Shown: positions 22,813-63,374 of the stretch, in pieces | How the letters are laid out: every line of letters begins with the position of its first letter | Numbering within the stretch: the stretch's first letter is position 1 | Source: Escherichia phage vB_Eco_mar003J3 | Strand: one strand, 5' to 3' | Length of the DNA: 64,000 nt | Sequence record: NC_048203.1 | The notes under the pieces: model-generated | Database searches by the model: none | What the model was told of the DNA's origin: nothing | The model's input: only the letters and a program-made list of their open reading frames with translations | Position numbers and translations under genes: made by a program

Positions 22813-24026
22813 TCTTTATCCCCATCGGCAGTGCCTTGCGGTCTACCACCTTCTTGACCAGATACACCTGTTGCAGAACCAGCAATGTTAGCAGGAATAC
22901 GAATCTTATTCATCTGCTCATCATCTAAAGGTTCAAGGTTAAGCTCTTCACGAGCTTCGTTACCAGTCATGATACCGTTATTAACCAAAGAGGTTAAATG
23001 TTTAGCCTCAGCTTCTTTATCTGGCGTCAGTGCAGCCACTTCCTTAGTATTAGGAGTAACCTTGTAGCCAAAGAAGAAAGTAAGAGAACTAGTCAGCTTG
23101 TTCAGCATGGGAATGATAGTCATGTAATAGAACAATTCGATGTTTGGTCGAATGTTAGCATTATTACCACCATCAAGTAACACTTGCGGAACACCAAAGG
23201 CAAGACAGATGGATTTATTAAATCCTTCGATATCTTCCTTGAAGTCTAGATCTTTAAAAGAGGATATTTGGGAGTACGGTTTTGCTTTCATACCACCATC
23301 TAGAATCAGGACAGTAGACTGACCCGTACTAGGATTATAATCGAGTTGTAATTCTTCTTGTTTACGCTCACGCAATTTCTTGTTCAGGATTTCATCCGTC
23401 TCAAGAATAAGACCAATCACAGTGCCGTTATCGAGGAACTTCTCTTTAAAGTTAAGCATTTTAGAACGCTTCTCAAGAGAGTCAATAACTGTAGCAACAC
23501 GAGATTGTCCAGAAATTTGGGAGTTTGTGCCACACACGTAACTGTTATCCTTTATAAAGATAATCTCATCTACGCGATAGTCTATCTGGTTATTAAATAT
23601 GAATTTTTTGATAAACTTATTGGCATCTGCCTCTACTTGCATTAGTGCAGCAGGGACATGGTAAAGTGCTGTGCCATCCCAATAGATGTATGCACAACCC
23701 TCAAAAAGTAGATCAGTGACTACAAGTCTACGGAATGTGCTTATATCCATGAATGGATTAGGTCGTACATTTAAGAGAGTGTCTAGAGTCTTTGCCTTGA
23801 CGCCGTTAGCGTACGTGACAATATTATATTTATCTCCGACAGTATAAGAACACTCCGCCGCACTATCGATAACCATGTTAGCAGTTCGGTTGAGAATCTC
23901 AATCTTACTGTAGGCTTGTCCAGTGGTAAATGGCTTACGGTTAGTGCGATGACTAACTGGTTCCATGTCTCTTATAATACGTTGACCCGGATTTAGCTTT
24001 TCAGTAATCCAGCTTTTTAAACCCAT
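22809..24026 (-). CDS. portal protein (T5 pb7-like)
   Basis: 405 aa, upstream of protease, downstream of terminase. Confidence 0.75.
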   Translation of the reverse strand: MGLKSWITEKLNPGQRIIRDMEPVSHRTNRKPFTTGQAYSKIEILNRTANMVIDSAAECSYTVGDKYNIVTYANGVKAKTLDTLLNVRPNPFMDISTFRRLVVTDLLFEGCAYIYWDGTALYHVPAALMQVEADANKFIKKFIFNNQIDYRVDEIIFIKDNSYVCGTNSQISGQSRVATVIDSLEKRSKMLNFKEKFLDNGTVIGLILETDEILNKKLRERKQEELQLDYNPSTGQSTVLILDGGMKAKPYSQISSFKDLDFKEDIEGFNKSICLAFGVPQVLLDGGNNANIRPNIELFYYMTIIPMLNKLTSSLTFFFGYKVTPNTKEVAALTPDKEAEAKHLTSLVNNGIMTGNEAREELNLEPLDDEQMNKIRIPANIAGSATGVSGQEGGRPQGTADGDKE

Positions 24027-24550
24027 TATAAGAACCTTGCGAATCCTGATTTAGTTTCAGTCTTGACTTGTGTCTTTTCTTGAGGATTCTGTAGCTTTTC
24101 CTTTTGTTTAAGAACCCATACCTTCTGCTTATTAGCAGAGAAAAGGGGTGGTTCTTTAGTGTACACCTTATGTAATAGTTGGTGATGGTGGACACAAAGG
24201 GTAACAGTGTCATCTACTAGCTCATGCCTATATCTTTCATAGAATGCCGTCCTATTTGAGAGGACTATTTCTTCGTCAGTGAAATCCAATTGGAGTTCTT
24301 TAGCAAATTTTTTAACTAGTAGAGACACTGTATGGTAATGATGAAGTTCTAATTCTTCACCACAACCACAGATTTCGCAGCGATCGGCTTTTTTATATTG
24401 ACTTTTTATACCGTCTCGCATGAGTGATATAGCATCACGTTTATATTTTACATTTCCTGCCACAGTATTCTCCTCAACTGTATGAATATAGTATACATAA
24501 TCATGTCGAATTTGTAAAGGGGATTTTAAAATGCAGGAATGGGATACCAA
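24026..24550 (-). CDS. HNH endonuclease
   Basis: CEICGCGEELELHHYH ... CVHHHQLLH zinc-binding HNH motifs; between large terminase and portal. Confidence 0.7.
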   Translation of the reverse strand: MVSHSCILKSPLQIRHDYVYYIHTVEENTVAGNVKYKRDAISLMRDGIKSQYKKADRCEICGCGEELELHHYHTVSLLVKKFAKELQLDFTDEEIVLSNRTAFYERYRHELVDDTVTLCVHHHQLLHKVYTKEPPLFSANKQKVWVLKQKEKLQNPQEKTQVKTETKSGFARFL

Positions 24551-24577
24551 CTGAGTAGTATCCTATCCTATACTTAT

Positions 24578-25894
24578 TTATTTCCCACGGGAAATTGAGT
24601 AAATTCCATAACGCAGTGCGTCACAAAGGTGAGAGTTCGCATCATGACGTGGTTTTTCACGTGATAATTTCTCTTCACCTTCCTGGAAGTCCCACTTGTA
24701 GTTCGCTAAGGCGTGGATCAATGAGGTACATGAAGCATCTACGATGATCTTACCTTGCTGGAACAGTGCTTGCAGGCATGCCAAACCATCTAGGACGGAT
24801 TTCTTAGCAGGAGCAGAAGCGATTTCATGTTCATAAGCTAAGTCCTGACGGAACTGAGCAGCGGCGGAGTCTACAAATATACGATCAACATTATAACGAT
24901 CTATGCAGTGCTGGATATAAGCAGCGTGTTGGGCTGTAGTCTTTTCAGCCTGCTGATACTCTTCTAGTATGTAATAAACATCAGTATCATAGTGATACTT
25001 GATAGTAAGAACTGCTGTAGGGTCACGATAACCAACGTCGATACCAAGTAATGTTTCGAAAGCCTCATCATCTTTAAAGAAGTGACGCATACCTTTGAGG
25101 TCTTTAACGTGCTCGATAGCATTGAAGGTATCAAAGATCTGACCTTCGAATACGGAGAAGTCAGCCTCATATTCTTGACGGAAATAGTTTTTACTAACAG
25201 TACGACGCGCTTCTTCGATATCGTTCAGGTCAGCACGTGGGTTATCACGATATGTACCATGAATAGATACCCAATTAGGTAGCGTTTCGTTAAATCCTTT
25301 CTCATAGAACTCTTTGAACCAGTTACCCCCACGAGGAGTAGAGATAAATAGAGCTTTAGAGTTTGGCTTATCTAGGGTAGGACGTAACTGAATATCGAAA
25401 GCTGCACCACCAACGTCGGAAATCGCTGCTTCGTCAAAAATGATGAAGTCATATGAACGACCAACCGCGGAGTCAGCCTGCGCCGCGGAAGCCAGTTTAA
25501 AGAGTGAACCATTCGCTAATTCAATCTCTTTATCTTTGGCGTTCTCACGTTCAGTCTGTAATCCATACTTTTTAATAAGACCACGAATCTGTGACCAACC
25601 AATGTTAGCCAGTGAGTAGTTAGGTGCAACTACTAGCACCTTCACATTGGGTTCCAGAAGTTTTAAGAACCCAAGTGTATATGCGATGAACGACTTACCT
25701 ACACGACGTGATACACATGCAGTTACGAAACGGTGTCTAGGATCTTCCAGCGCGTTAATAATTGCAACCTGAGGGGCGTTAGGCGTAATCCCCTCTTGAG
25801 CTAGAATGCTAGAGACTGGCAGACGGAAAAATCGTTTGTCAATACCAAAGTCAATAACATCTGTGGTGTTAATATAATCTCTAGAGACCTTCAT
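24578..25894 (-). CDS. terminase large subunit
   Basis: 438 aa (T5 large terminase 438 aa); Walker A-like VSRRVGKS; C-terminal acidic nuclease-like segment. Confidence 0.8.
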   Translation of the reverse strand: MKVSRDYINTTDVIDFGIDKRFFRLPVSSILAQEGITPNAPQVAIINALEDPRHRFVTACVSRRVGKSFIAYTLGFLKLLEPNVKVLVVAPNYSLANIGWSQIRGLIKKYGLQTERENAKDKEIELANGSLFKLASAAQADSAVGRSYDFIIFDEAAISDVGGAAFDIQLRPTLDKPNSKALFISTPRGGNWFKEFYEKGFNETLPNWVSIHGTYRDNPRADLNDIEEARRTVSKNYFRQEYEADFSVFEGQIFDTFNAIEHVKDLKGMRHFFKDDEAFETLLGIDVGYRDPTAVLTIKYHYDTDVYYILEEYQQAEKTTAQHAAYIQHCIDRYNVDRIFVDSAAAQFRQDLAYEHEIASAPAKKSVLDGLACLQALFQQGKIIVDASCTSLIHALANYKWDFQEGEEKLSREKPRHDANSHLCDALRYGIYSISRGK

Positions 25895-55416: not shown

Positions 55417-55812
55417 TTAGTCGTAGCACCACCATAACCCACGCTTACGCAGATCATGATCGCGATTATAGTCGTAATTTTCTGGATCTTTCATCACACG
55501 ATGAAGTTCGCGACGGTTTCCCTGACGAACCATTTTGTTAGAATGCCACTTAACATTCCTACTAACAGAATCCCACCAGTGCCCATCTTTCTTCTCGTTA
55601 CGGATGATATTTTCCTGAATCTCCTTCTCAATTTCATCCCAAGTTTTAGCCCATGCTTCATTGGATCGAACTTGATAATACTTCCACTGCTTACCATCCC
55701 TATCCGTGTAGGTATACGGAATACGGATATTAGTGCTATGAAAATTATAAGTAGAACGATGTGCATCACGCCAGTGACGATCACCAGATTGTTTACGATA
55801 TGTACGGCTCAT
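55417..55812 (-). CDS. basic Trp-rich protein
   Basis: 131 aa. Confidence 0.45.
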   Translation of the reverse strand: MSRTYRKQSGDRHWRDAHRSTYNFHSTNIRIPYTYTDRDGKQWKYYQVRSNEAWAKTWDEIEKEIQENIIRNEKKDGHWWDSVSRNVKWHSNKMVRQGNRRELHRVMKDPENYDYNRDHDLRKRGLWWCYD

Positions 55813-56056: not shown

Positions 56057-56120
56057 TTCGAAAATCCTACATACAAGAAAACCCCAGACTACTTATTCAA
56101 TAGCTGGGGTTTATTATTAA

Positions 56121-56420
56121 TTAGATAATTTCGACAATATCCTGAGTTACAAAACCGTCGAATTCATCAGAGATACCACCTGTAAAGGTGATGCCCATAA
56201 TCATTGCATCCATCTTTTTAATCTCCGAGATTTTAATACCTGCTTTACTATTCTTATAGTATTTGCGAGGATTCCCACACATCCAACAAGAACAGATGCA
56301 AGGAGTGGTAGTGATAATGCCTAGCCGCTTAGGACTTTCTTCGTGTGGGAAGACTGTCCAATACTTTTTGCGATTGTTTTTCACACGTTGCCGGTGATGG
56401 CGTCTTAATGCTCGATCCAC
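56121..56420 (-). CDS. zinc-finger-like small protein
   Basis: 99 aa; CICSCWMCGNPRKY. Confidence 0.4.
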   Translation of the reverse strand: MDRALRRHHRQRVKNNRKKYWTVFPHEESPKRLGIITTTPCICSCWMCGNPRKYYKNSKAGIKISEIKKMDAMIMGITFTGGISDEFDGFVTQDIVEII

Positions 56421-56501: not shown

Positions 56502-56870
56502 TTATATCGCCTGAGTAAATGTACGACTAATAACGTCGTTCTGTTGTTCACGCGTCAATGCGTTAAATCGAACAGCATAGCCAGAGACACGGATGGTCAA
56601 CTGAGGATATTTTTCAGGATGTTTCTGCGCATCCAAAAGCTGATCACGGCTTAACACATTGACATTTAGGTGCTGACCACCCTCGACTTGAGGAACCACT
56701 TCCACATCTACAATGCGAAAGGCCTCAGGGTCAAAGTGAGGTGTGATACCTTCTAGATCTTCGACTAGAACTTTCTGTTTAAGTTCACCATCTTTAGAAT
56801 ATAGTTGAATGATCTGATTGTTATGAACAATGTTAATTACGCCAGACTTAAGACTTTGATATGCTTTCAT
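56502..56870 (-). CDS. autonomous glycyl-radical cofactor (GrcA/YfiD-like)
   Basis: C-terminal [12 protein letters not shown]...[23 protein letters not shown] matches the pyruvate formate-lyase glycyl-radical motif RVSGY. Confidence 0.7.
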
Positions 56871-57242
56871 TAGATCTCCCTGATGTTAGAATTTGGCTCA
56901 GCTTTTTGTTAACCCAGAAGCAAGATAAAAACTGGAAGGCAGGCTTGCTTATTATCTAATCACTAGCTACGGTTGGGGTGCTAGCATTCCGGTGAGATTG
57001 ATGGTCTCGATTAGATAAATAAGCACTGGAACTTTGATTTTAACGTTGCGATCTTCCAGGTCTGTTGCAACTACGTGATTGCTCACGCTAAGACAATGGC
57101 TATCTAAAGTCCTAGCTTCTACATTTATACTCCTGGATAGCATGGAGTTACAGTCTACTTCCTGCTGTCACGCCCGGCCATTTATAGAATGTGGACTCTC
57201 TTCTCAGAAGGATCTGGTACAATGACCTGATCCTCTGTTTAG

Positions 57243-57315
57243 TAGTTAGTAGTGGATTTGAACCACTGTAGTCGCTCCGTATGAAGGAGGTGCATAACCG
57301 CTCTGCCAACTAACT
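57243..57315 (-). tRNA. tRNA, anticodon CAU (Met or Ile-lysidine)
   Basis: hand-folded cloverleaf; T-arm AGTGG-TTCAAAT-CCACT; acceptor AGTTAGT/ACTAACT. Confidence 0.6.
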
Positions 57316-57321
57316 ATAATT

Positions 57322-57397
57322 TGGTACTCCGACTTGGGATCGAACCAAGATTTGACGATTATCGGTCGCCTGTTCTAACCTGTTGAACTATCAGAGC
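57322..57397 (-). tRNA. tRNA-Ile, anticodon GAU (CCA encoded)
   Basis: acceptor GCTCTGA/TCGGAGT; anticodon loop CCGATAA; T-loop TTCGATC. Confidence 0.55.
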
Positions 57398-57398
57398 A

Positions 57399-57692
57399 TT
57401 ACATCATTTCATCTAAGTAAGAAGTATACTGGTATTTAGCTTCACCAGTCTTATCTACTTCTACCTCAGTTCGTGGTACTTTACGAACTAGACCATGAAT
57501 CATCTTGTACTGAATAGACTTAGATGGTTCGTGATCTTTTGGAAATACTTGTTTAACCGTTACTACTTTGAAGCCTTCACGAGGTGTTAATACAACAACT
57601 TGATCACCTTCTTTAATTTTCCAGGACTCAGGAAATTCATAAGTGTAGCGTTGACCACCAGTTTGGAACACGACAGAAAGATAACGTTTCAT
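57399..57692 (-). CDS. hypothetical protein
   Basis: 97 aa between tRNA genes. Confidence 0.45.
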   Translation of the reverse strand: MKRYLSVVFQTGGQRYTYEFPESWKIKEGDQVVVLTPREGFKVVTVKQVFPKDHEPSKSIQYKMIHGLVRKVPRTEVEVDKTGEAKYQYTSYLDEMM

Positions 57693-57767
57693 TTGGTTTC
57701 CCTCTCATTAATTTATATAAATATTATAACAAGAAATAAGAGAGAAGGCAAATGAATTTTTTAAATT

Positions 57768-57842
57768 TGGTGCTCCTACCAGGAATCGAACCCGGTTCAG
57801 ATGCTTACAAGGCAACTGCATCGCCAGCAATGCTTTAGGAGC
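57768..57842 (-). tRNA. tRNA-Thr, anticodon UGU (CCA encoded)
   Basis: acceptor GCTCCTA/TAGGAGC; loop CTTGTAA. Confidence 0.6.
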
Positions 57843-58009
57843 AATAAACCCATTATTTCAACGGGATTTCTTTTTCAAATATAGGGGACTTATCAGACAT
57901 TACTGTCATAGCCAACTGCTGTAGAAATTCGAATGAGAGTTTTAAACGTTCTTCTCCTAACTCAACCTCAACTCACTTCATTCGTTTATCTACTTTTAGC
58001 TTTAGATTA

Positions 58010-58231
58010 TCAGACATCTTCGGATTCTCGTTGCTCGGCTACTGCTAGCCAGTCTGGTAAAAGAAACTTAGTACGAAACTCTTCATAAGGTTCTTCTGGA
58101 TAAAAGCTAAAATTTGCTTTCTCATCATTCAAGATAACAGAGCCGTCAGTTTGTTCGTATGCTAGGTATGTTTCTCCAATAACAATAACTCGTTTATTGT
58201 TACTTTTATCACGAAACTCAAAAACGTGCAT
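58010..58231 (-). CDS. hypothetical protein
   Basis: 73 aa. Confidence 0.4.
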   Translation of the reverse strand: MHVFEFRDKSNNKRVIVIGETYLAYEQTDGSVILNDEKANFSFYPEEPYEEFRTKFLLPDWLAVAEQRESEDV

Positions 58232-58248
58232 AAATGTTTCCTTAAAGT

Positions 58249-58324
58249 TGGAGCGGCTAGAGGGAATCGAACCCTACTCAGCGGGGCTTGGAAGGCCTGC
58301 GGCACAACCCGTGTGCTTAACCGC
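58249..58324 (-). tRNA. tRNA, anticodon unresolved (possibly UCC or CCA); weak anticodon stem
   Basis: good acceptor and T-arm (TTCGATT), CCA encoded; anticodon arm has mismatches. Confidence 0.45.
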
Positions 58325-58332
58325 TTATTGGC

Positions 58333-58410
58333 TGGCAGGGGATATTGGATTTGAACCAATGATCTCGACTTCAAAGGCCGAAGCTTTAGACCAAGCTAAG
58401 CTAATCCCCA
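58333..58410 (-). tRNA. tRNA-Gln, anticodon UUG
   Basis: anticodon arm TCGGC-CTTTGAA-GTCGA; T-arm ATTGG-TTCAAAT-CCAAT. Confidence 0.55.
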
Positions 58411-58416
58411 ATTGTT

Positions 58417-58492
58417 TGGCTGGGATGCCACGGATCGAACGTAGAACCTTCGGAGTCAGAGGCCGACGATCTACCAATTGATCTACATCCCA
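58417..58492 (-). tRNA. tRNA-Gln, anticodon CUG
   Basis: standard numbering fits; D-stem GATC/GATC, G18G19, loop CTCTGAC, T-loop TTCGATC. Confidence 0.6.
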
Positions 58493-58499
58493 ATAATTT

Positions 58500-58700
58500 T
58501 TATTCTACAGGAACCGTGGCAATTGGATCTGGTTCTTCTAGACGTTTACCATTATGATCAACACGAATAATACCACAACCTTCACAGATTACAACAGCAC
58601 CATAGCCTTCTTTAACTTCGGCTTCTATAATCAGACCAGAAAGATCACCAGTATCTTTGCCCCACATATCGATAGAGCATTCTTTGCAGAAATCAGCCAT
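58500..58700 (-). CDS. small Cys-cluster protein
   Basis: 66 aa; FCKEC...CEGCG. Confidence 0.4.
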   Translation of the reverse strand: MADFCKECSIDMWGKDTGDLSGLIIEAEVKEGYGAVVICEGCGIIRVDHNGKRLEEPDPIATVPVE

Positions 58701-58724
58701 ATTTTAGTTCCTATATAAGTTAAT

Positions 58725-58799
58725 TGGTGCATCCTCAGGGAATCGAACCCCGATCGTAAAGTTCGTAGCTTTACATTCTTTCCATTGAAATAAGGACGC
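58725..58799 (-). tRNA. tRNA-Arg, anticodon ACG
   Basis: anticodon arm GTAAAG-CTACGAA-CTTTAC; acceptor GCGTCCT/AGGATGC; CCA encoded. Confidence 0.7.
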
Positions 58800-58805
58800 A
58801 ATATT

Positions 58806-58882
58806 TGGGGTGGCTAGTGGAATTCGAATCCACATAGGCCTGATTCACAATCAGGATCATTAACCAATTATGATATAGCCAC
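58806..58882 (-). tRNA. tRNA-His, anticodon GUG
   Basis: acceptor GTGGCTA/TAGCCAC; anticodon arm CCTGA-TTGTGAA-TCAGG; T-arm GTGGA-TTCGAAT-TCCAC. Confidence 0.7.
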
Positions 58883-59216
58883 AATTGAAAACTCGCAGGG
58901 TTAGCGAAACCATCCTCAAATAGCATTTTCTAGAATACTAATCAAGTTATCCCCTATTGCACGAAGCTCAAGACGAGTACGAATTTTCAATTGTGGCGGC
59001 TCTCCGAAACTCTTCCCACTTACAACTAGTTGATTACTCCTAGATTGTCGCCCAGGAAATTCTCTAGAAAGGAGCACCGTTACTCTTTGAGCCATTGAGG
59101 TGGGATAGTCTCTTATCTCTACTAACTACTTGATCCTTACAATCAGTCGGTTAGCACGAGCAGCGACTCTTCATATATAATTTATAGTGCTCAGAAGGTC
59201 ATTAGAAGCACTTATC

Positions 59217-59300
59217 AAGAAGCAGAAGGACTCGAACCTTCACGAGATAGACCATTTATCTCAGCCTCGTTTTCGGGTATCTTATGAGGAGTGGATGTTC
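59217..59300 (-). ncRNA. tRNA-like element (T-arm GAAGG-TTCGAGT-CCTTC plus 6-bp hairpin), cloverleaf not resolved
   Basis: no complementary 5' acceptor strand found by eye. Confidence 0.3.
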
Positions 59301-59379
59301 CCCTTACGCCCTTTAGGAAGCCCCGTCTACCGATTCCGGCATACTTCAAGATTCTGCTAGTCCGAGTCATGCTATAGCA

Positions 59380-59721
59380 TCAAATGCTCGGTGTTAGTGG
59401 TTTCCAAAGTTTAGCAAACTTTAAAACATTTGGTATATCGTTAGAACTTACTGGCATAACTACTAAACAGCTGGGTTCTGCGTTACAAATAGTACGCTCA
59501 AATCCTTTACTACACTCTAGCGTAGACAGAATCTTCTTAAATTCTTTCTTGTTAACCTTAATAACTACCTTAAAGAAGCAGTTGTCAAACCAATCCTTAT
59601 ATCTAGGATCATCCTGAAATTTAACATGAGCATTTAAAACAGAGTGTGCCACTAGAGTCGGCACCATATAATCAGGGGCTTCATCTAATACTGCAATATA
59701 CATCTTACTATAAGTACTCAT
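59380..59721 (-). CDS. hypothetical protein
   Basis: 113 aa. Confidence 0.45.
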   Translation of the reverse strand: MSTYSKMYIAVLDEAPDYMVPTLVAHSVLNAHVKFQDDPRYKDWFDNCFFKVVIKVNKKEFKKILSTLECSKGFERTICNAEPSCLVVMPVSSNDIPNVLKFAKLWKPLTPSI

Positions 59722-59737
59722 ACTGTTCCTTATAATT

Positions 59738-59827
59738 TGGAGGAAGGTAATGGAGTCGAACCATCACCATATCGCTACAGCGGGCAGGTTTTCAAGACCT
59801 GTTACATACCACTATGTCCTACCTTCC
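59738..59827 (-). tRNA. tRNA-Ser, anticodon UGA (type II, long variable arm)
   Basis: acceptor GGAAGGT/ACCTTCC; anticodon arm CAGGT-CTTGAAA-ACCTG; 90 nt. Confidence 0.7.
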
Positions 59828-59834
59828 AGTTGTT

Positions 59835-59924
59835 TGGCGGAAGAAGAGAGATTCGAACTCTCAAGCCGTTTTACCAGTCAGCCACTTTCCAAGCGGTTTT
59901 CGTCACCTATCGATTTGCTCTTCC
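59835..59924 (-). tRNA. tRNA-Ser, anticodon GGA (type II)
   Basis: acceptor GGAAGAG/TTCTTCC; loop TTGGAAA; T-arm GAGAG-TTCGAAT-CTCTC; 90 nt. Confidence 0.65.
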
Positions 59925-60098
59925 GTAGATCTCAGGATTAAATCATAAACTTCATTAGCGGATACTGGAAGTATGAGATTATACATCTTTTGGTCATACC
60001 TCTGACCATACTCTATAAACACATACTCTTTAGTTAATGTATTAACAGCTAACCAGATATCAGTTATAGGAGTTTTCATCATGAGTTAATCCAATGTT

Positions 60099-60179
60099 TG
60101 GTAGGGATGGAGGGACTCGAACCCACACCCGAAGACTAGAACCTAAATCTAGCGCGTCTGCCAATTTCGCCACATCCCC
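60099..60179 (-). tRNA. tRNA-Leu-like, anticodon UAG, 9-nt variable region
   Basis: anticodon arm CTAGA-TTTAGGT-TCTAG; acceptor GGGGATG/CATCCCT. Confidence 0.55.
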
Positions 60180-60186
60180 ATTTTAT

Positions 60187-60405
60187 TTAGTTAGAAATAA
60201 ATAGTAACCCTGCAACAATGGAACCTATGCCACTGAATACCATTATCAGCATAGCTTCTAAGCTGATAAAGCGGACGTTATATGGAGCGCCCCAAGAATA
60301 ATCAGTAAAGAAAGTTTTCTTTTCTTTAGCTAAATCTTTAATAGTTCTAAAATAGATAGCTAGTGCTAAAGCTGCAAGAACTACAGAGGCTGCTAAGAAT
60401 ATCAT
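60187..60405 (-). CDS. small membrane protein (2 TM)
   Basis: 72 aa. Confidence 0.45.
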   Translation of the reverse strand: MIFLAASVVLAALALAIYFRTIKDLAKEKKTFFTDYSWGAPYNVRFISLEAMLIMVFSGIGSIVAGLLFISN

Positions 60406-60424
60406 ATTATTTCCTTAATTTGTT

Positions 60425-60500
60425 TGGTGGAGTCACTCAGAATTGAACTGAGTTCCACTGCTTGCAAGGCAGTAAGTTTAACCAAATAACCTATGACCCC
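60425..60500 (-). tRNA. tRNA-Ala, anticodon UGC (G3-U70 present)
   Basis: acceptor GGGGTCA/TGACTCC; anticodon arm ACTGC-CTTGCAA-GCAGT. Confidence 0.7.
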
Positions 60501-60505
60501 GAATT

Positions 60506-60584
60506 TGGTGGAGAATAAGAGATTCGAACTCTTCTGATATCCTCGGTGCAAGCGAGGTGTCCACTCCAAGCAGACCCATTCCCC
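60506..60584 (-). tRNA. tRNA with anticodon UGC and G3-U70 (second Ala-like tRNA)
   Basis: acceptor GGGGAAT/ATTCTCC; anticodon arm CCTCG-CTTGCAC-CGAGG. Confidence 0.55.
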
Positions 60585-60867
60585 AAAATCTTTAAGTTTA
60601 CTAAGGCTATTAGCTCGGTGTGCGTATTACCCTCAGACATTAGCCAGTAGAGGATAACCGCTCTTCACAAACCCGATACACTATTCAGTTGCCGCTGAAT
60701 CTAGTGGACTAATCTAGAACTTATTGCAAAGTATCCCCCGCCATTAAGGGTCTAATTGCAATTGTGCTTTTTGGCAGCCAGTCCTAGGTCGAGCTAATAC
60801 CTTAGTGAACTTTGATGAGGATTTCTCCTCATCAATTTATATAAATATTATAACAAGAAATTAAGCA

Positions 60868-61227
60868 TCAAGCAAGTACATTTTTAGCGATTTCTTGTAT
60901 TTCCTTAACGTCACTAACGAAAAGGTAATCAGAGCTTCCAGAGTGCATACTCTGCATAACCACACCATCCTCTGGTGCATCTTCTTTCAGTGTGATACCT
61001 AACCAGAACTCGGCAAAACTAGGTGTTACCTCACCTTGACTTGCCTTGAATACATCGGCTTCTGTAATCTCTTGACCAGTGGAGAGTCCCATGTATGGTA
61101 CGTTCAGATCAATATCTTTGTAGAATTCAGCTAGATCTTGTTCGAAGTCCCAACCTTTAGAGATAGCGAACTCACTTGTTACATGACCGAAATAGCCTTG
61201 AACCTTGCTTGATAATTGCATTTGCAA
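60868..61227 (-). CDS. hypothetical acidic protein
   Basis: 119 aa. Confidence 0.45.
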   Translation of the reverse strand: MQMQLSSKVQGYFGHVTSEFAISKGWDFEQDLAEFYKDIDLNVPYMGLSTGQEITEADVFKASQGEVTPSFAEFWLGITLKEDAPEDGVVMQSMHSGSSDYLFVSDVKEIQEIAKNVLA

Positions 61228-61246
61228 TTCCTTATTTTGAGTTAAT

Positions 61247-61320
61247 TGGTACTCGGTGATAGAATCGAACTATCGCAACCGCCGTGTAAAGACGGGGTTC
61301 TCCCATTAAACTAACCGAGC
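61247..61320 (-). tRNA. tRNA-Val, anticodon UAC
   Basis: acceptor GCTCGGT/ACCGAGT; loop TTTACAC; T-arm GATAG-TTCGATT-CTATC. Confidence 0.65.
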
Positions 61321-61329
61321 AAAGTAATT

Positions 61330-61407
61330 TGGTGGGTCGTGAAGGACTCGAACCTTCAACCTATTGCTTAAAAGGCAAGTGCTACTAACCAATTGAGCTA
61401 ACGACCC
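61330..61407 (-). tRNA. tRNA-Lys, anticodon UUU
   Basis: acceptor GGGTCGT/ACGACCC; loop CTTTTAA; T-arm GAAGG-TTCGAGT-CCTTC. Confidence 0.6.
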
Positions 61408-61591
61408 TTAATACGGATAAACTTCCTTAATAGAGTAAGCTTCTAAGTAGCGATGATTAATACCAAATTCAGCCATTACTTCATTTTCATCTTTACCATA
61501 GTGGGCTAAGGTATACTTCGAACGATCTTTGCTAGAACGTCGATCACTTACTACTAATCGAAATAATTTCATTTCGTATCCTCTACTAAAT

Positions 61592-61669
61592 TGGAAGCGG
61601 GTGTAGGAATCGAACCTACCTCTTACTAGCTTATGAGACTAGTGATCTCTACCAGAGATCTAACCCGCA
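61592..61669 (-). tRNA. tRNA, anticodon CAU (Met or Ile-lysidine), second copy
   Basis: anticodon arm CTAGT-CTCATAA-GCTAG; D-stem GATC/GATC. Confidence 0.55.
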
Positions 61670-61675
61670 ATTGTT

Positions 61676-61752
61676 TGGTCTCCAATGAAGGACTCGAACC
61701 TTCAACCCCACCGCCCCAAACGGTGTACTCTAGCCAATTGAGCTAATCGGAG
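61676..61752 (-). tRNA. tRNA-Pro, anticodon UGG
   Basis: acceptor CTCCGAT/ATTGGAG; anticodon arm CACCG-TTTGGGG-CGGTG. Confidence 0.65.
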
Positions 61753-62139
61753 AATATTATTTCTTTAGCCACAACATACTTAATCCTAGCATTGTGAAGC
61801 CTGTACTTAGTCCTACTACTTTCCACATCGTAGAAAGTACATCTATATTAAAGCCAACAATTATTACTGGAATTACCCAAGTACACATAAATACGGATGC
61901 AATTTTTACCTTCATTTCGCTTTCCTTTCATCACTTTATAAAATATATTATACAGAGAATTAAGCAGAATAGCAAATGAATTTTTAATAAATTTACTTAT
62001 TGTGTAGGCCACCTGGAGGCTATGAACCCCACGGCTGACAAAGAAGTTTGCGAGACCTCTCTTAAATGCCAGAATAGACCCGCCGATCTATCGGAACCTA
62101 CATAATAAGTAAACTTTCGCTTACTTATAAGTCAATCTA

Positions 62140-62260
62140 GGCAGGACTTGAACCTGCTATCACTTGTGCGGATTTACGAGAACCATTCTTTCACTCGAAT
62201 CGAACGAGCTTCTACCCTCGGCAAGCTGGTGACCCCTCTCCACCACGCTAGAATGTTTAA
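62140..62260 (-). ncRNA. two tRNA-like T-arm motifs without resolvable cloverleaves (possible degenerate tRNAs)
   Basis: GCAGG-TTCAAGT-CCTGC and GCTCG-TTCGATT-CGAGT present; acceptor pairing not found. Confidence 0.25.
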
Positions 62261-62261
62261 T

Positions 62262-62339
62262 TGGTACACCTGCTGAGATTCAAACTCAGTATCTTCCGAT
62301 TAAGAGTCGGTTGCTTTAAGTCAACTAAGCTACAGATGC
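62262..62339 (-). tRNA. tRNA, anticodon CUU (Lys-like)
   Basis: acceptor GCATCTG/CAGGTGT; loop CTCTTAA; T-arm CTGAG-TTTGAAT-CTCAG. Confidence 0.5.
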
Positions 62340-62345
62340 ATTGTT

Positions 62346-62420
62346 TGGCGGTACTAAGGGTAATCGAAACCCTACCTCTCCCGTGACAGGGGAGTATCCT
62401 AACCATTAGACTATAGTACC
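62346..62420 (-). tRNA. tRNA-Asp, anticodon GUC
   Basis: acceptor GGTACTA/TAGTACC; anticodon arm CTCCC-CTGTCAC-GGGAG. Confidence 0.7.
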
Positions 62421-62992
62421 TTTAACTTTTTAAGTTCTTTAGGATTGCCTCCTAAAGAAGTGTATCTTTTACGCAACCCATTGTCTGAATAACTTAACTT
62501 TCTCCCTGCACCTGACCAGCCTAGCTCTCTTACTGTAACCTCGATTATTTCTTTAGTTATAGAGATATCTTTTGGTTTATGTGAAGAGCACTCCTGACAT
62601 TTTTCAGCTTTTAAAGAAATAGCTTTACCACAATCCTTACAATAATTATCATGGTTTAGTTTACTAAATCCTTTGTCTTTTAAAGTCTTTTCTAGATGCT
62701 GCTCTTTTGTGAGCACTTGTAAGTTATTAAGACCCCAATAAGTAATGTCTGTGTTAATATGGTCAACTTCTAGTTCAGAGTCTAGACTTGGTAATTTCTT
62801 AAATGCACATGCTAAAATCCTATGTACACCGGTATTTCTCGGTTGACCATTTTTATGGAGACGTATAGATAAGTATCCGTAATTACTGGTTATTGGGGTT
62901 AGTATTTTGTTTGATTTGATACTAAATACTAACCCATCCAAACTTACTAAGTACTCCTCAAACCCTGGAATGGGTAAGGATATTCCGTGCAT
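62411..62992 (-). CDS. HNH homing endonuclease
   Basis: EVDHINTDITYWGLNNLQVLTKEQH HNH motif; embedded in tRNA array. Confidence 0.65.
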   Translation of the reverse strand: MHGISLPIPGFEEYLVSLDGLVFSIKSNKILTPITSNYGYLSIRLHKNGQPRNTGVHRILACAFKKLPSLDSELEVDHINTDITYWGLNNLQVLTKEQHLEKTLKDKGFSKLNHDNYCKDCGKAISLKAEKCQECSSHKPKDISITKEIIEVTVRELGWSGAGRKLSYSDNGLRKRYTSLGGNPKELKKLKVL

Positions 62993-62995
62993 AAT

Positions 62996-63181
62996 TTATT
63001 CAGCCCGAAGTTTTTCGATAGCTTCCTCAACCTCTTTTAGAGCTTCACGACGTGCATTCTGTTGCTGCATATCTTGAATTAATGTCAGTTTTTGGTTTTC
63101 AATTTCTTGATCACGAACCTTAATATTATTAATCAGATTATCACGATCAGCTTCTAGTCGAGCAATTGCACGAGTTGTCAT
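62996..63181 (-). CDS. small coiled-coil protein
   Basis: 61 aa. Confidence 0.4.
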   Translation of the reverse strand: MTTRAIARLEADRDNLINNIKVRDQEIENQKLTLIQDMQQQNARREALKEVEEAIEKLRAE

Positions 63182-63208
63182 ATCTATTTCCTCAGTTGTT
63201 AATGAAAT

Positions 63209-63291
63209 TGGCGGGCCGTGTAGGATTCGAACCTACGTTGTCTTTCGACATGGATTAACAGTCCACCGCCAAACCGCTTGGCTAACGACCC
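63209..63291 (-). tRNA. tRNA, anticodon GUU (Asn-like) with unusually long 13-nt variable region
   Basis: acceptor GGGTCGT/ACGGCCC; anticodon arm GTGGA-CTGTTAA-TCCAT. Confidence 0.5.
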
Positions 63292-63298
63292 TAAAATT

Positions 63299-63374
63299 TG
63301 GACGACCGCATGAGATTCGAACTCACATAAGGAGGTTTTGCAGGCCTCCGCCTAAGCCATTCAGCCAACGGTCG
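63299..63374 (-). tRNA. tRNA-Cys, anticodon GCA
   Basis: acceptor CGACCGT/GCGGTCG; loop CTGCAAA; T-arm GTGAG-TTCGAAT-CTCAT. Confidence 0.6.

Follow-up and report, generated by a model that had tools for sequence, protein, structure and literature searches.

Two proteins frame what is known about stand-alone glycyl-radical cofactors. According to PMC8683613, which cites the work of Wagner et al. (2001), Y06I of phage T4 and YfiD (GrcA) of E. coli are the only two spare-part proteins that have been validated biochemically; PFL-AE installs the radical in them, and pyruvate formate-lyase (PFL) that has been cleaved by O2 is reactivated. In vivo, GrcA rescues PflB G734A, and the radical passes from Gly102 of GrcA to Cys419 of PflB (PMC12338860). 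Synthetic heptamers around Gly734 are direct substrates of PFL-AE (PMC9326890). The N-terminus of GrcA is disordered by NMR, and the N-terminal half of the protein is important for binding cleaved PFL and for efficient installation of the radical (PMC8683613).

Both the gene that we describe here and its family are already known: the T5 copy, T5.056 (YP_006884), was already picked out when that genome was annotated, and its counterpart in T4, vs.6 (Y06I; NP_049730), was characterised in 2001. We analysed a 64,000-nucleotide stretch of DNA (the window) in which a first-pass annotation had called the minus-strand ORF at 56502-56870 a phage-encoded, GrcA-like glycyl-radical protein. That reading did not mention that this is a known and widespread phage gene (T5.056, T4 vs.6).

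The locus compares most closely with T5. T5.056 is the orthologue of the gene, likewise encodes 122 aa, is 94% identical and likewise lies between the early tRNA cluster and a T5.055-like ORF with a terminator; further orthologues of T5.056 are found in Demerecviridae of the genera Tequintavirus and Epseptimavirus. T4 Y06I is 120 aa long as compared to 122 aa here, and the two proteins have in common the MKAYQ start, the RVSGYAV domain and a match to PHROG 1209. E. coli GrcA (P68066; 6OWR; TIGR04365) belongs to the same size class; however, the T5-type gene is viral and lies in an early tRNA-rich region, not at the host grcA locus. Regulation of host grcA is stress-inducible. E. coli PflB and TdcE carry an identical 10-residue radical loop (residues 94-103 here), but they are approximately 760 aa long, and the 122-aa protein has neither their ten-stranded barrel nor the catalytic Cys418/Cys419 and therefore cannot be an enzyme alone.

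The gene is a stand-alone ORF of a T5-like phage

Over the 2 kb around the gene, the DNA is 98.6% identical to E. coli phage vB_EcoS_Ace and to two Salmonella phages, OSY-STA and bux (Epseptimavirus), all of them T5-like; the order of the window also follows that of bux through the structural, pre-early and early regions. The DNA thus comes from a T5-like phage of Salmonella/E. coli (Demerecviridae), and the gene is phage-encoded, as the first-pass annotation had it. Proteins that are 100% identical have already been deposited from Salmonella phage Sw2 and E. coli phage Shin27. The features of the locus, in the order in which they would be transcribed, are as follows.

57723..57751, minus strand: sigma-70-like promoter, TTGCCT-17-TGnTATAAT, probable start of the unit (10/12 consensus match, extended -10; inferred to be at the position of T5 P11)
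57242..57397, minus strand: tRNA-Met(CAT) and tRNA-Ile(GAT), co-oriented, directly upstream of the gene (ARAGORN; Rfam tRNA; T5 annotation)
56876..56880, minus strand: Shine-Dalgarno sequence GGGAG, 5 nt before the ATG (read from the sequence)
56502..56870, minus strand: coding sequence, 122 aa and TAA stop, of the probable T5-type GrcA-like autonomous glycyl-radical cofactor, orthologue of T5.056 (ORF, homology, pN/pS)
56688..56870, minus strand: codons 1-61, N-terminal region specific to the T5-like clade (no pairwise match to vs.6; under constraint by pN/pS)
56505..56687, minus strand: codons 62-122, PFL-type glycyl-radical domain, equivalent to GrcA 67-127 and PflB 699-759
56571..56591, minus strand: codons 94-100, radical-bearing loop RVSGYAV (read from the sequence; invariant in 32 family members; aligned to GrcA and PflB)
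56580-56582, minus strand: GGC codon of Gly97, equivalent to GrcA Gly102 and PflB Gly734
56121..56420, minus strand: T5.055-like ORF of 99 aa, downstream and co-oriented, the last before the terminator (hypothetical in bux and T5; no Pfam family)
56073..56110, minus strand: rho-independent terminator, ACCCCAG...CTGGGGT then TTTCTTGT, which ends the unit (read from the sequence)

In the ORF list, the reading frame runs from an ATG start through 122 codons to TAA, and its bounds coincide exactly with 56502-56870 on the minus strand. The gene has translation signals of its own, namely the ATG and a conserved GGGAG Shine-Dalgarno sequence, and what lies upstream is tRNA genes or non-coding DNA; across T5-like phages, the arrangement (G)GGAGA(T/G)CTA-ATG is kept in all 30 of the loci that we compared. 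The gene thus encodes a small stand-alone protein (approximately 14 kDa class) and is not just the 3' part of a longer PFL gene; the translation contains no cysteine.

Reading along the strand, we found the P11-like promoter, a 97-aa ORF, tRNA-Ile, tRNA-Met, a 350-bp insert, the GrcA-like gene, the T5.055-like ORF and the terminator, an order that suggests a single transcription unit from promoter to terminator. We took the boundaries of this putative unit from synteny with T5, since promoter-like sites in the region were no commoner than in shuffled sequence in a pattern scan, and the terminator was missed by the scan because its loop is long; the promoter region aligns with the T5 stretch that holds the annotated promoter P11, and the terminator aligns with the one annotated in T5 after T5.055. 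Twenty tRNA genes on the same strand make up the early tRNA cluster (57242-63374), and the GrcA-like gene sits at its edge. We propose that the product of the gene is made early in infection. The locus differs from that of T5 in nothing substantial; it has a stretch of approximately 350 bp between tRNA-Met and the gene that is absent in T5, where tRNA-Met abuts T5.056. An Rfam scan of the insert region returned only the two tRNAs, a 58-codon ORF within the insert had no family match, and a search of nine flanking ORFs against Pfam gave no family except DUF7295.

The C-terminal half carries an intact PFL-type glycyl-radical domain

In the C-terminal half, we found that approximately 60 residues are homologous to PFL residues 693-759, with the glycine in RVSGYAV. 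Over the last 61 residues, the protein is identical to TdcE at 52 positions, to GrcA at 49, and to PflB and T4-like vs.6 at 48 each, which amounts to 79-85% for the three host proteins. The Pfam family Gly_radical (PF01228) matches with E = 4e-18; among PDB entries, E. coli GrcA ranks first (6owr_A, E = 2.2e-29) and PflB next (E = 1.6e-26). When we aligned the protein by BLASTP to sequences taken from genome records, K-12 GrcA matched residues 51-122 with 74% identity (E = 1e-37) and T4 vs.6/Y06I matched residues 1-122 with 51% identity (E = 5e-38). The close resemblance of the last 60 or so residues to enterobacterial GrcA that the first-pass annotation had reported, and the 10-residue motif that it quoted (residues 94-103), are thus borne out, and the alignments to GrcA and Y06I that it proposed as a check are both significant. 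The match to the phage family is full length in the profile search as well: the PHROG 1209 profile aligns residues 1-122 to its positions 1-121 of 121 (E = 7.2e-47). In an alignment of 32 family members, there are 35 invariant columns, all of them in the C-terminal domain, and the protein keeps 35/35, including RVSGYAV and Gly97.

At the DNA level, the domain is identical to E. coli grcA, pflB and tdcE at 129-137 of 183 nt (136-137 for pflB and for tdcE), and the 3' half of the gene is approximately 75% identical to host pflB and tdcE. As candidate donors of the domain, grcA, pflB and tdcE lie too close together to tell apart, both in protein (48-52/61) and in DNA (129-137/183). In T4-like phage AR1, the vs.6 domain is all but identical to that of host grcA (60/61 aa, 179/183 nt); in contrast, the T5-type domain is only approximately 80% identical in amino acids and approximately 70% in nucleotides to any host paralogue.

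An AlphaFold2 (AF2) model built from 34 sequences is of moderate quality (mean pLDDT 75, pTM 0.41). In this model, the C-terminal part is predicted to adopt the YfiD/PFL fold of strand, glycine hairpin and helix, with a helix at residues 75-83, the strands of the Gly97 hairpin at 92-95 and 98-101, and a second helix at 107-117. The top PDB match in a Foldseek search was the NMR structure of YfiD, 6OWR (E = 8e-6, TM 0.76 over its 60 ordered residues), and the next were PFL crystal structures. The predicted layout is common to the T5-type protein and GrcA and consists of N-terminal strands, a low-confidence EGGQHLN segment, a helix, the glycine hairpin and a C-terminal helix. By size, translation signals, RVSGYAV domain and predicted fold, the protein thus appears to be a stand-alone glycyl-radical cofactor of the GrcA/YfiD-Y06I kind (IPR011140).

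The protein does not reach the 170-bit cutoff of TIGR04365, the NCBIfam equivalog model for GrcA, scoring 118.3 bits with a match that covers residues 54-121 only. When we calibrated this model, E. coli GrcA scored 234, T4-like vs.6 scored 154.9, copies from jumbo and Vibrio phages scored 135-137 and T5.056 scored 121.5; the vs.6 protein that scored 154.9 is identical to the validated Y06I at 118/120 positions (98%). No phage copy that we scored passed, the near-copy of Y06I included. A score below 170 bits thus speaks to whether the name "bacterial GrcA equivalog" applies and leaves function aside; the threshold sorts bacterial copies from those of phages and is weak evidence as to what the protein does. 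All NCBIfam matches were to GrcA or PFL-clade enzymes, and none was to NrdD. We also considered whether the protein could itself be a formate C-acetyltransferase (PflB/TdcE) and rejected this identity: at 122 aa, it aligns to positions 683-743 of the 744 in TIGR01255 and scores 84 bits against a cutoff of 994.

The N-terminal half is divergent

In contrast to the radical domain, residues 1-50 have no pairwise similarity by BLASTP to the N-terminus of GrcA or of T4-like vs.6, and GrcA is matched within the N-terminal half by residues 51-61 only. Used as a query by itself, the segment 1-59 had no genuine relative among 1.84 billion representative proteins. The search returned only a 46-aa piece of this very protein and a PPR/TPR-like repeat protein of 869 aa (28 residues aligned at 35% identity; four repeated stretches), and we set the latter aside as a compositional or repeat artefact. 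Unlike pairwise BLASTP, however, the PHROG 1209 profile spans the N-terminal half too, and a multiple alignment of the family brings out a common MKxxQ start and a [FY]RxVxVExxP lead-in. From these sequence comparisons, the N-terminal region appears to be a divergent counterpart of the N-terminal half of GrcA.

The family alignment and the AF2 model together point to an extra beta-hairpin at approximately residues 17-27 in the T5-type protein, which T4-like vs.6 lacks, and the N-terminal halves of the two have no significant pairwise similarity. In the model, the N-terminal beta strands have pLDDT values of approximately 80-86, and comparable strands are predicted for bacterial GrcA; Foldseek found no structural match to the strands in BFVD or the PDB. 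Since the N-terminus of GrcA is modelled alike and yet is disordered by NMR, the predicted strands are uninformative about order in the free phage protein, and we rejected the idea that the N-terminus is a folded, phage-specific domain.

The gene is widespread in phages and under purifying selection

By tblastn, a homologue is present in 1,582 phage records, of which approximately 440 are T5-like records at 80% identity or more and more than 1,100 are T4-like and other records at approximately 50%. When we searched with the protein, copies of GrcA size also turned up in jumbo phages of approximately 350 kb and Vibrio phages of approximately 250 kb, beside bacterial GrcA.

To measure selection, we used 30 T5-like loci from IMG/VR, which hold 28 distinct alleles. 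The 122-codon gene is intact in all 30 loci. Across the 28 alleles, pN/pS is 0.086 for the whole gene with a pS of approximately 0.30, and it is lower in the C-terminal radical domain (0.022) than in the N-terminal half (0.139); both halves are therefore under purifying selection. The gene is real, well conserved and maintained, and is not a relic.

A probable spare part for host pyruvate formate-lyase

We consider it likely that the protein is an autonomous glycyl-radical cofactor, which the phage supplies as a spare part for host PflB, and probably for TdcE too, and which host PflA activates. In a fermenting or micro-aerobic host, O2 would cut active PflB at the radical-bearing Gly734 and leave the enzyme inactive, and the paralogue TdcE would probably suffer likewise. 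The phage protein would then dock on cleaved PFL, with its N-terminal half binding and its C-terminal 61 residues replacing the lost domain. Host PflA, a radical-SAM activase, would take a hydrogen from Gly97 in the RVSGYAV loop, and the radical would move to Cys419 of PflB, so that conversion of pyruvate and CoA to acetyl-CoA and formate could restart. The 122-aa protein keeps the RVSGYAV loop exactly, and we take this to be the sequence of the heptamers on which PFL-AE acts. For the phage, such rescue would keep up the supply of acetyl-CoA, formate and ATP for phage production in micro-aerobic, fermenting cells. T5 degrades host DNA early in infection, and the benefit would fall at a time when fresh PflB or GrcA can probably no longer be produced by the infected cell. 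A literature search gave no report of what any phage copy does in vivo, and none on the expression of T5.056 or vs.6.

What the phage itself encodes bears on this scheme. With E. coli PflA and NrdG as tblastn queries, we detected no homologue of either in the T5-like DNA examined, and the sole PflB-like sequence found there was the GrcA-like gene itself; therefore, both the activase and the target must be host proteins. The ORFs next to phage nrdD are DUFs or HAD proteins, with no radical-SAM protein among them. In this respect, the T5-like DNA differs from T4, which encodes NrdG.

A related idea, which was part of the first-pass annotation, is that the protein repairs a class III ribonucleotide reductase (RNR); it would then replace the O2-cleaved tail of phage or host NrdD, with NrdG as the activase. 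An NrdD is indeed present in T5-like phages (bux_74, Pfam NRDD, E = 6e-173) and has a Gly_radical domain of the same Pfam family, some GenBank records name the gene "ribonucleotide reductase subunit", and O2 damage is common to all glycyl-radical enzymes, with non-PFL spare parts having been speculated upon (PMC8683613). However, BLASTP against the NrdD of a near-identical T5-like phage gave E = 17, that is, no similarity. The NrdD glycine lies in TRRVCGYLGNP after a four-cysteine site (CGECGF...CPICG), whereas the 122-aa protein is cysteine-free; moreover, its domain identity and NCBIfam matches lie with PflB, TdcE and GrcA and never with NrdD, and the GenBank name comes without supporting evidence. 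We regard RNR repair as very unlikely, so that of the two roles put forward in the first-pass annotation the GrcA/Y06I-like identity with possible PFL rescue holds, through the alignments, profiles and predicted fold, and the RNR role is not supported. It is distinctly unlikely, though less so than RNR repair, that the protein acts as a decoy or modulator that binds host PflA and/or PflB and dampens or redirects fermentation, or serves as a radical sink, its divergent N-terminus having changed what it binds. The N-terminal half is unlike that of both validated proteins and yet constrained; it is also the half that governs binding of cleaved PFL in GrcA, and sequence cannot tell productive from non-productive binding. 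Against this, a decoy would not need a full catalytic loop, and yet all the invariant positions are kept in a domain with the lowest pN/pS of the gene; the homologous Y06I restores PFL activity in vitro (PMC8683613); and a phage gains from running the energy metabolism of its host.

The protein could also serve a PFL-clade enzyme other than PflB, namely TdcE (2-ketobutyrate formate-lyase) or another host enzyme, which as an exclusive role we consider unlikely. TdcE has the highest identity over the domain, the 20-residue C-terminal tail equals that of TdcE except at one position, and some records name the gene "2-ketobutyrate formate-lyase". However, a difference of 3-4 residues in 61 is a weak signal, DNA identity to pflB and tdcE is equal, and TdcE and PflB are themselves identical to each other at 52/61 positions in the domain. 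TdcE and PflB share the activase PflA. With their domains so alike and the activase shared, a spare part would probably serve both, and reading the protein as a part for TdcE is a refinement of the PflB spare-part explanation and not a true alternative to it. Least credible of all is that the gene is a non-functional remnant, a captured 3' fragment of host pflB, tdcE or grcA that stays open by chance. In its favour, only the 3' half is host-like at the DNA level; against it, the gene and its Shine-Dalgarno sequence are intact throughout the T5-like loci, the non-host-like N-terminal half is constrained too (pS is approximately 0.30), and several unrelated phage lineages retain homologues of GrcA size. 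The selection analysis, which shows constraint, refutes the remnant.

Within the PFL spare-part reading, target recognition by the T5-type protein could differ from that by GrcA, because the N-terminal 50 residues diverge and this half matters for binding of PFL by GrcA. Going further, T5-type proteins might form a functionally distinct subclass of spare parts, in which the clade-specific and constrained N-terminal half, with its extra predicted hairpin, together with a radical domain equidistant from the host paralogues, alters what is recognised; with an NrdD and no activase, these phages would then carry an "anaerobic infection module" that runs on host radical-SAM activases. We think this unlikely. 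Possible altered targets of such a subclass are intact or differently damaged PflB, TdcE and another host glycyl-radical enzyme.

Significance and naming of the family

On the PFL spare-part reading, T5-like, T4-like, jumbo and Vibrio phages would all encode a part that repairs an enzyme of host fermentation, which fits infection in a gut where oxygen fluctuates. The divergent N-terminus would make the T5-type protein a natural variant for probing how a spare part recognises damaged PFL. The practical value is modest, and the locus reveals no new kind of system.

GenBank names for the homologues are inconsistent and include "ribonucleotide reductase subunit", "pyruvate formate-lyase", "2-ketobutyrate formate-lyase", "acetyltransferase", "glycyl radical cofactor" and "hypothetical". 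The T5 record itself calls T5.056 a "putative acetyltransferase-related protein", based on InterPro IPR001150. When we compared the names with what defines each of them, "pyruvate formate-lyase", "2-ketobutyrate formate-lyase", "ribonucleotide reductase subunit" and "acetyltransferase" each failed on its own defining features. One consistent name, autonomous glycyl-radical cofactor (Y06I/GrcA-like), appears justified in place of misleading names in hundreds of GenBank records, and some relatives are already labelled "glycyl radical cofactor" or "autonomous glycyl radical cofactor".

Origin of the radical domain and its activation

We compared vs.6, the T4-type homologue of the GrcA-like gene, from the T4-like phage AR1 (5181-5360 of the AR1 DNA) with E. 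coli K-12 grcA (1070-1252 of the K-12 grcA DNA). The 3' 183 nt of AR1 vs.6 match grcA at 179 of 183 positions, and 60 of 61 amino acids are identical over this stretch; the 5' half of AR1 vs.6 is phage-specific. Because a near-identical 3' part is joined to a phage-specific 5' half, the sequence comparison points to either a very recent capture from the host gene or gene conversion with it. In contrast, the T5-type gene has a DNA identity of only ~70-75% to any host paralogue. Thus, the same domain has different histories in the two phage lineages.

T5-like phages also encode the class III RNR large subunit NrdD, which is 52% identical to E. coli NrdD; in bux, a near-identical Salmonella phage, it lies at 22814-24688 of the bux DNA, outside the window. 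We could detect no NrdG or PflA activase in the window or in three further T5-like phage DNA sequences, including bux (tblastn E > 0.7). As neither is detectable in this DNA, it seems that NrdD and the GrcA-like protein, the two phage glycyl-radical proteins, both rely on radical-SAM activases of the host.

Annotation of the gene in databases

The same gene is named differently from one GenBank record to another: 'ribonucleotide reductase subunit', '2-ketobutyrate formate-lyase', 'pyruvate formate-lyase', 'formate acetyltransferase', 'acetyltransferase-related protein', 'glycyl radical cofactor' and 'hypothetical protein' (seen, for example, in MT833283, MN187969, NC_048008, KM236244 and Citrobacter phage YZU-L1). 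PHROG 1209 is labelled 'unknown function', and one cluster (P0035, 67 aa) seems to be a copy whose start site was called too late.

A small ORF overlapping the stop codon

56329-56502, minus strand: 57-codon ORF, its ATG overlapping the stop codon of the GrcA-like gene (TAATG)

This ORF, which is unannotated in T5 and in bux, occupies the 81-nt 'intergenic' space and then runs into the start of the T5.055-like ORF downstream. All 30 T5-like loci examined keep this frame open, at 53-57 codons. In its 26 non-overlapping codons, pN/pS is 0.34, as compared to 0.61 and 1.00 in the remaining two frames. These values may hint at a coding sequence; the conservation may instead reflect translation signals of the downstream gene.

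Flanking features

56880-57228: ~350-bp stretch between tRNA-Met and the GrcA-like gene
57242-63374, minus strand: 20 tRNA genes with small ORFs in between
56073-56110, minus strand: clear rho-independent terminator, formed by a 7-bp G+C-rich stem with a 16-nt loop and followed by a T-rich tail
55417-55812, minus strand: 131-aa ORF, two genes downstream of the GrcA-like gene

T5 lacks the ~350-bp stretch, and its tRNA-Met abuts the gene. Only a subset of T5-like genomes carries the stretch, with 6 of 30 loci having it at full length, and the site looks like a hot spot for indels. The stretch contains neither a tRNA nor anything that matches Rfam, and its 58-codon ORF (56967-57143) has no Pfam family.

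The tRNA cluster, which includes two genes each for Gln, Ser, Ala, Lys and Met, has the arrangement typical of the T5 early region. The terminator is homologous to the annotated T5 terminator after T5.055; its loop was too long for the consensus scan to pick it up. The 131-aa ORF gives a full-length match to Pfam DUF7295 (E 3e-60) and is conserved in T5-like phages.
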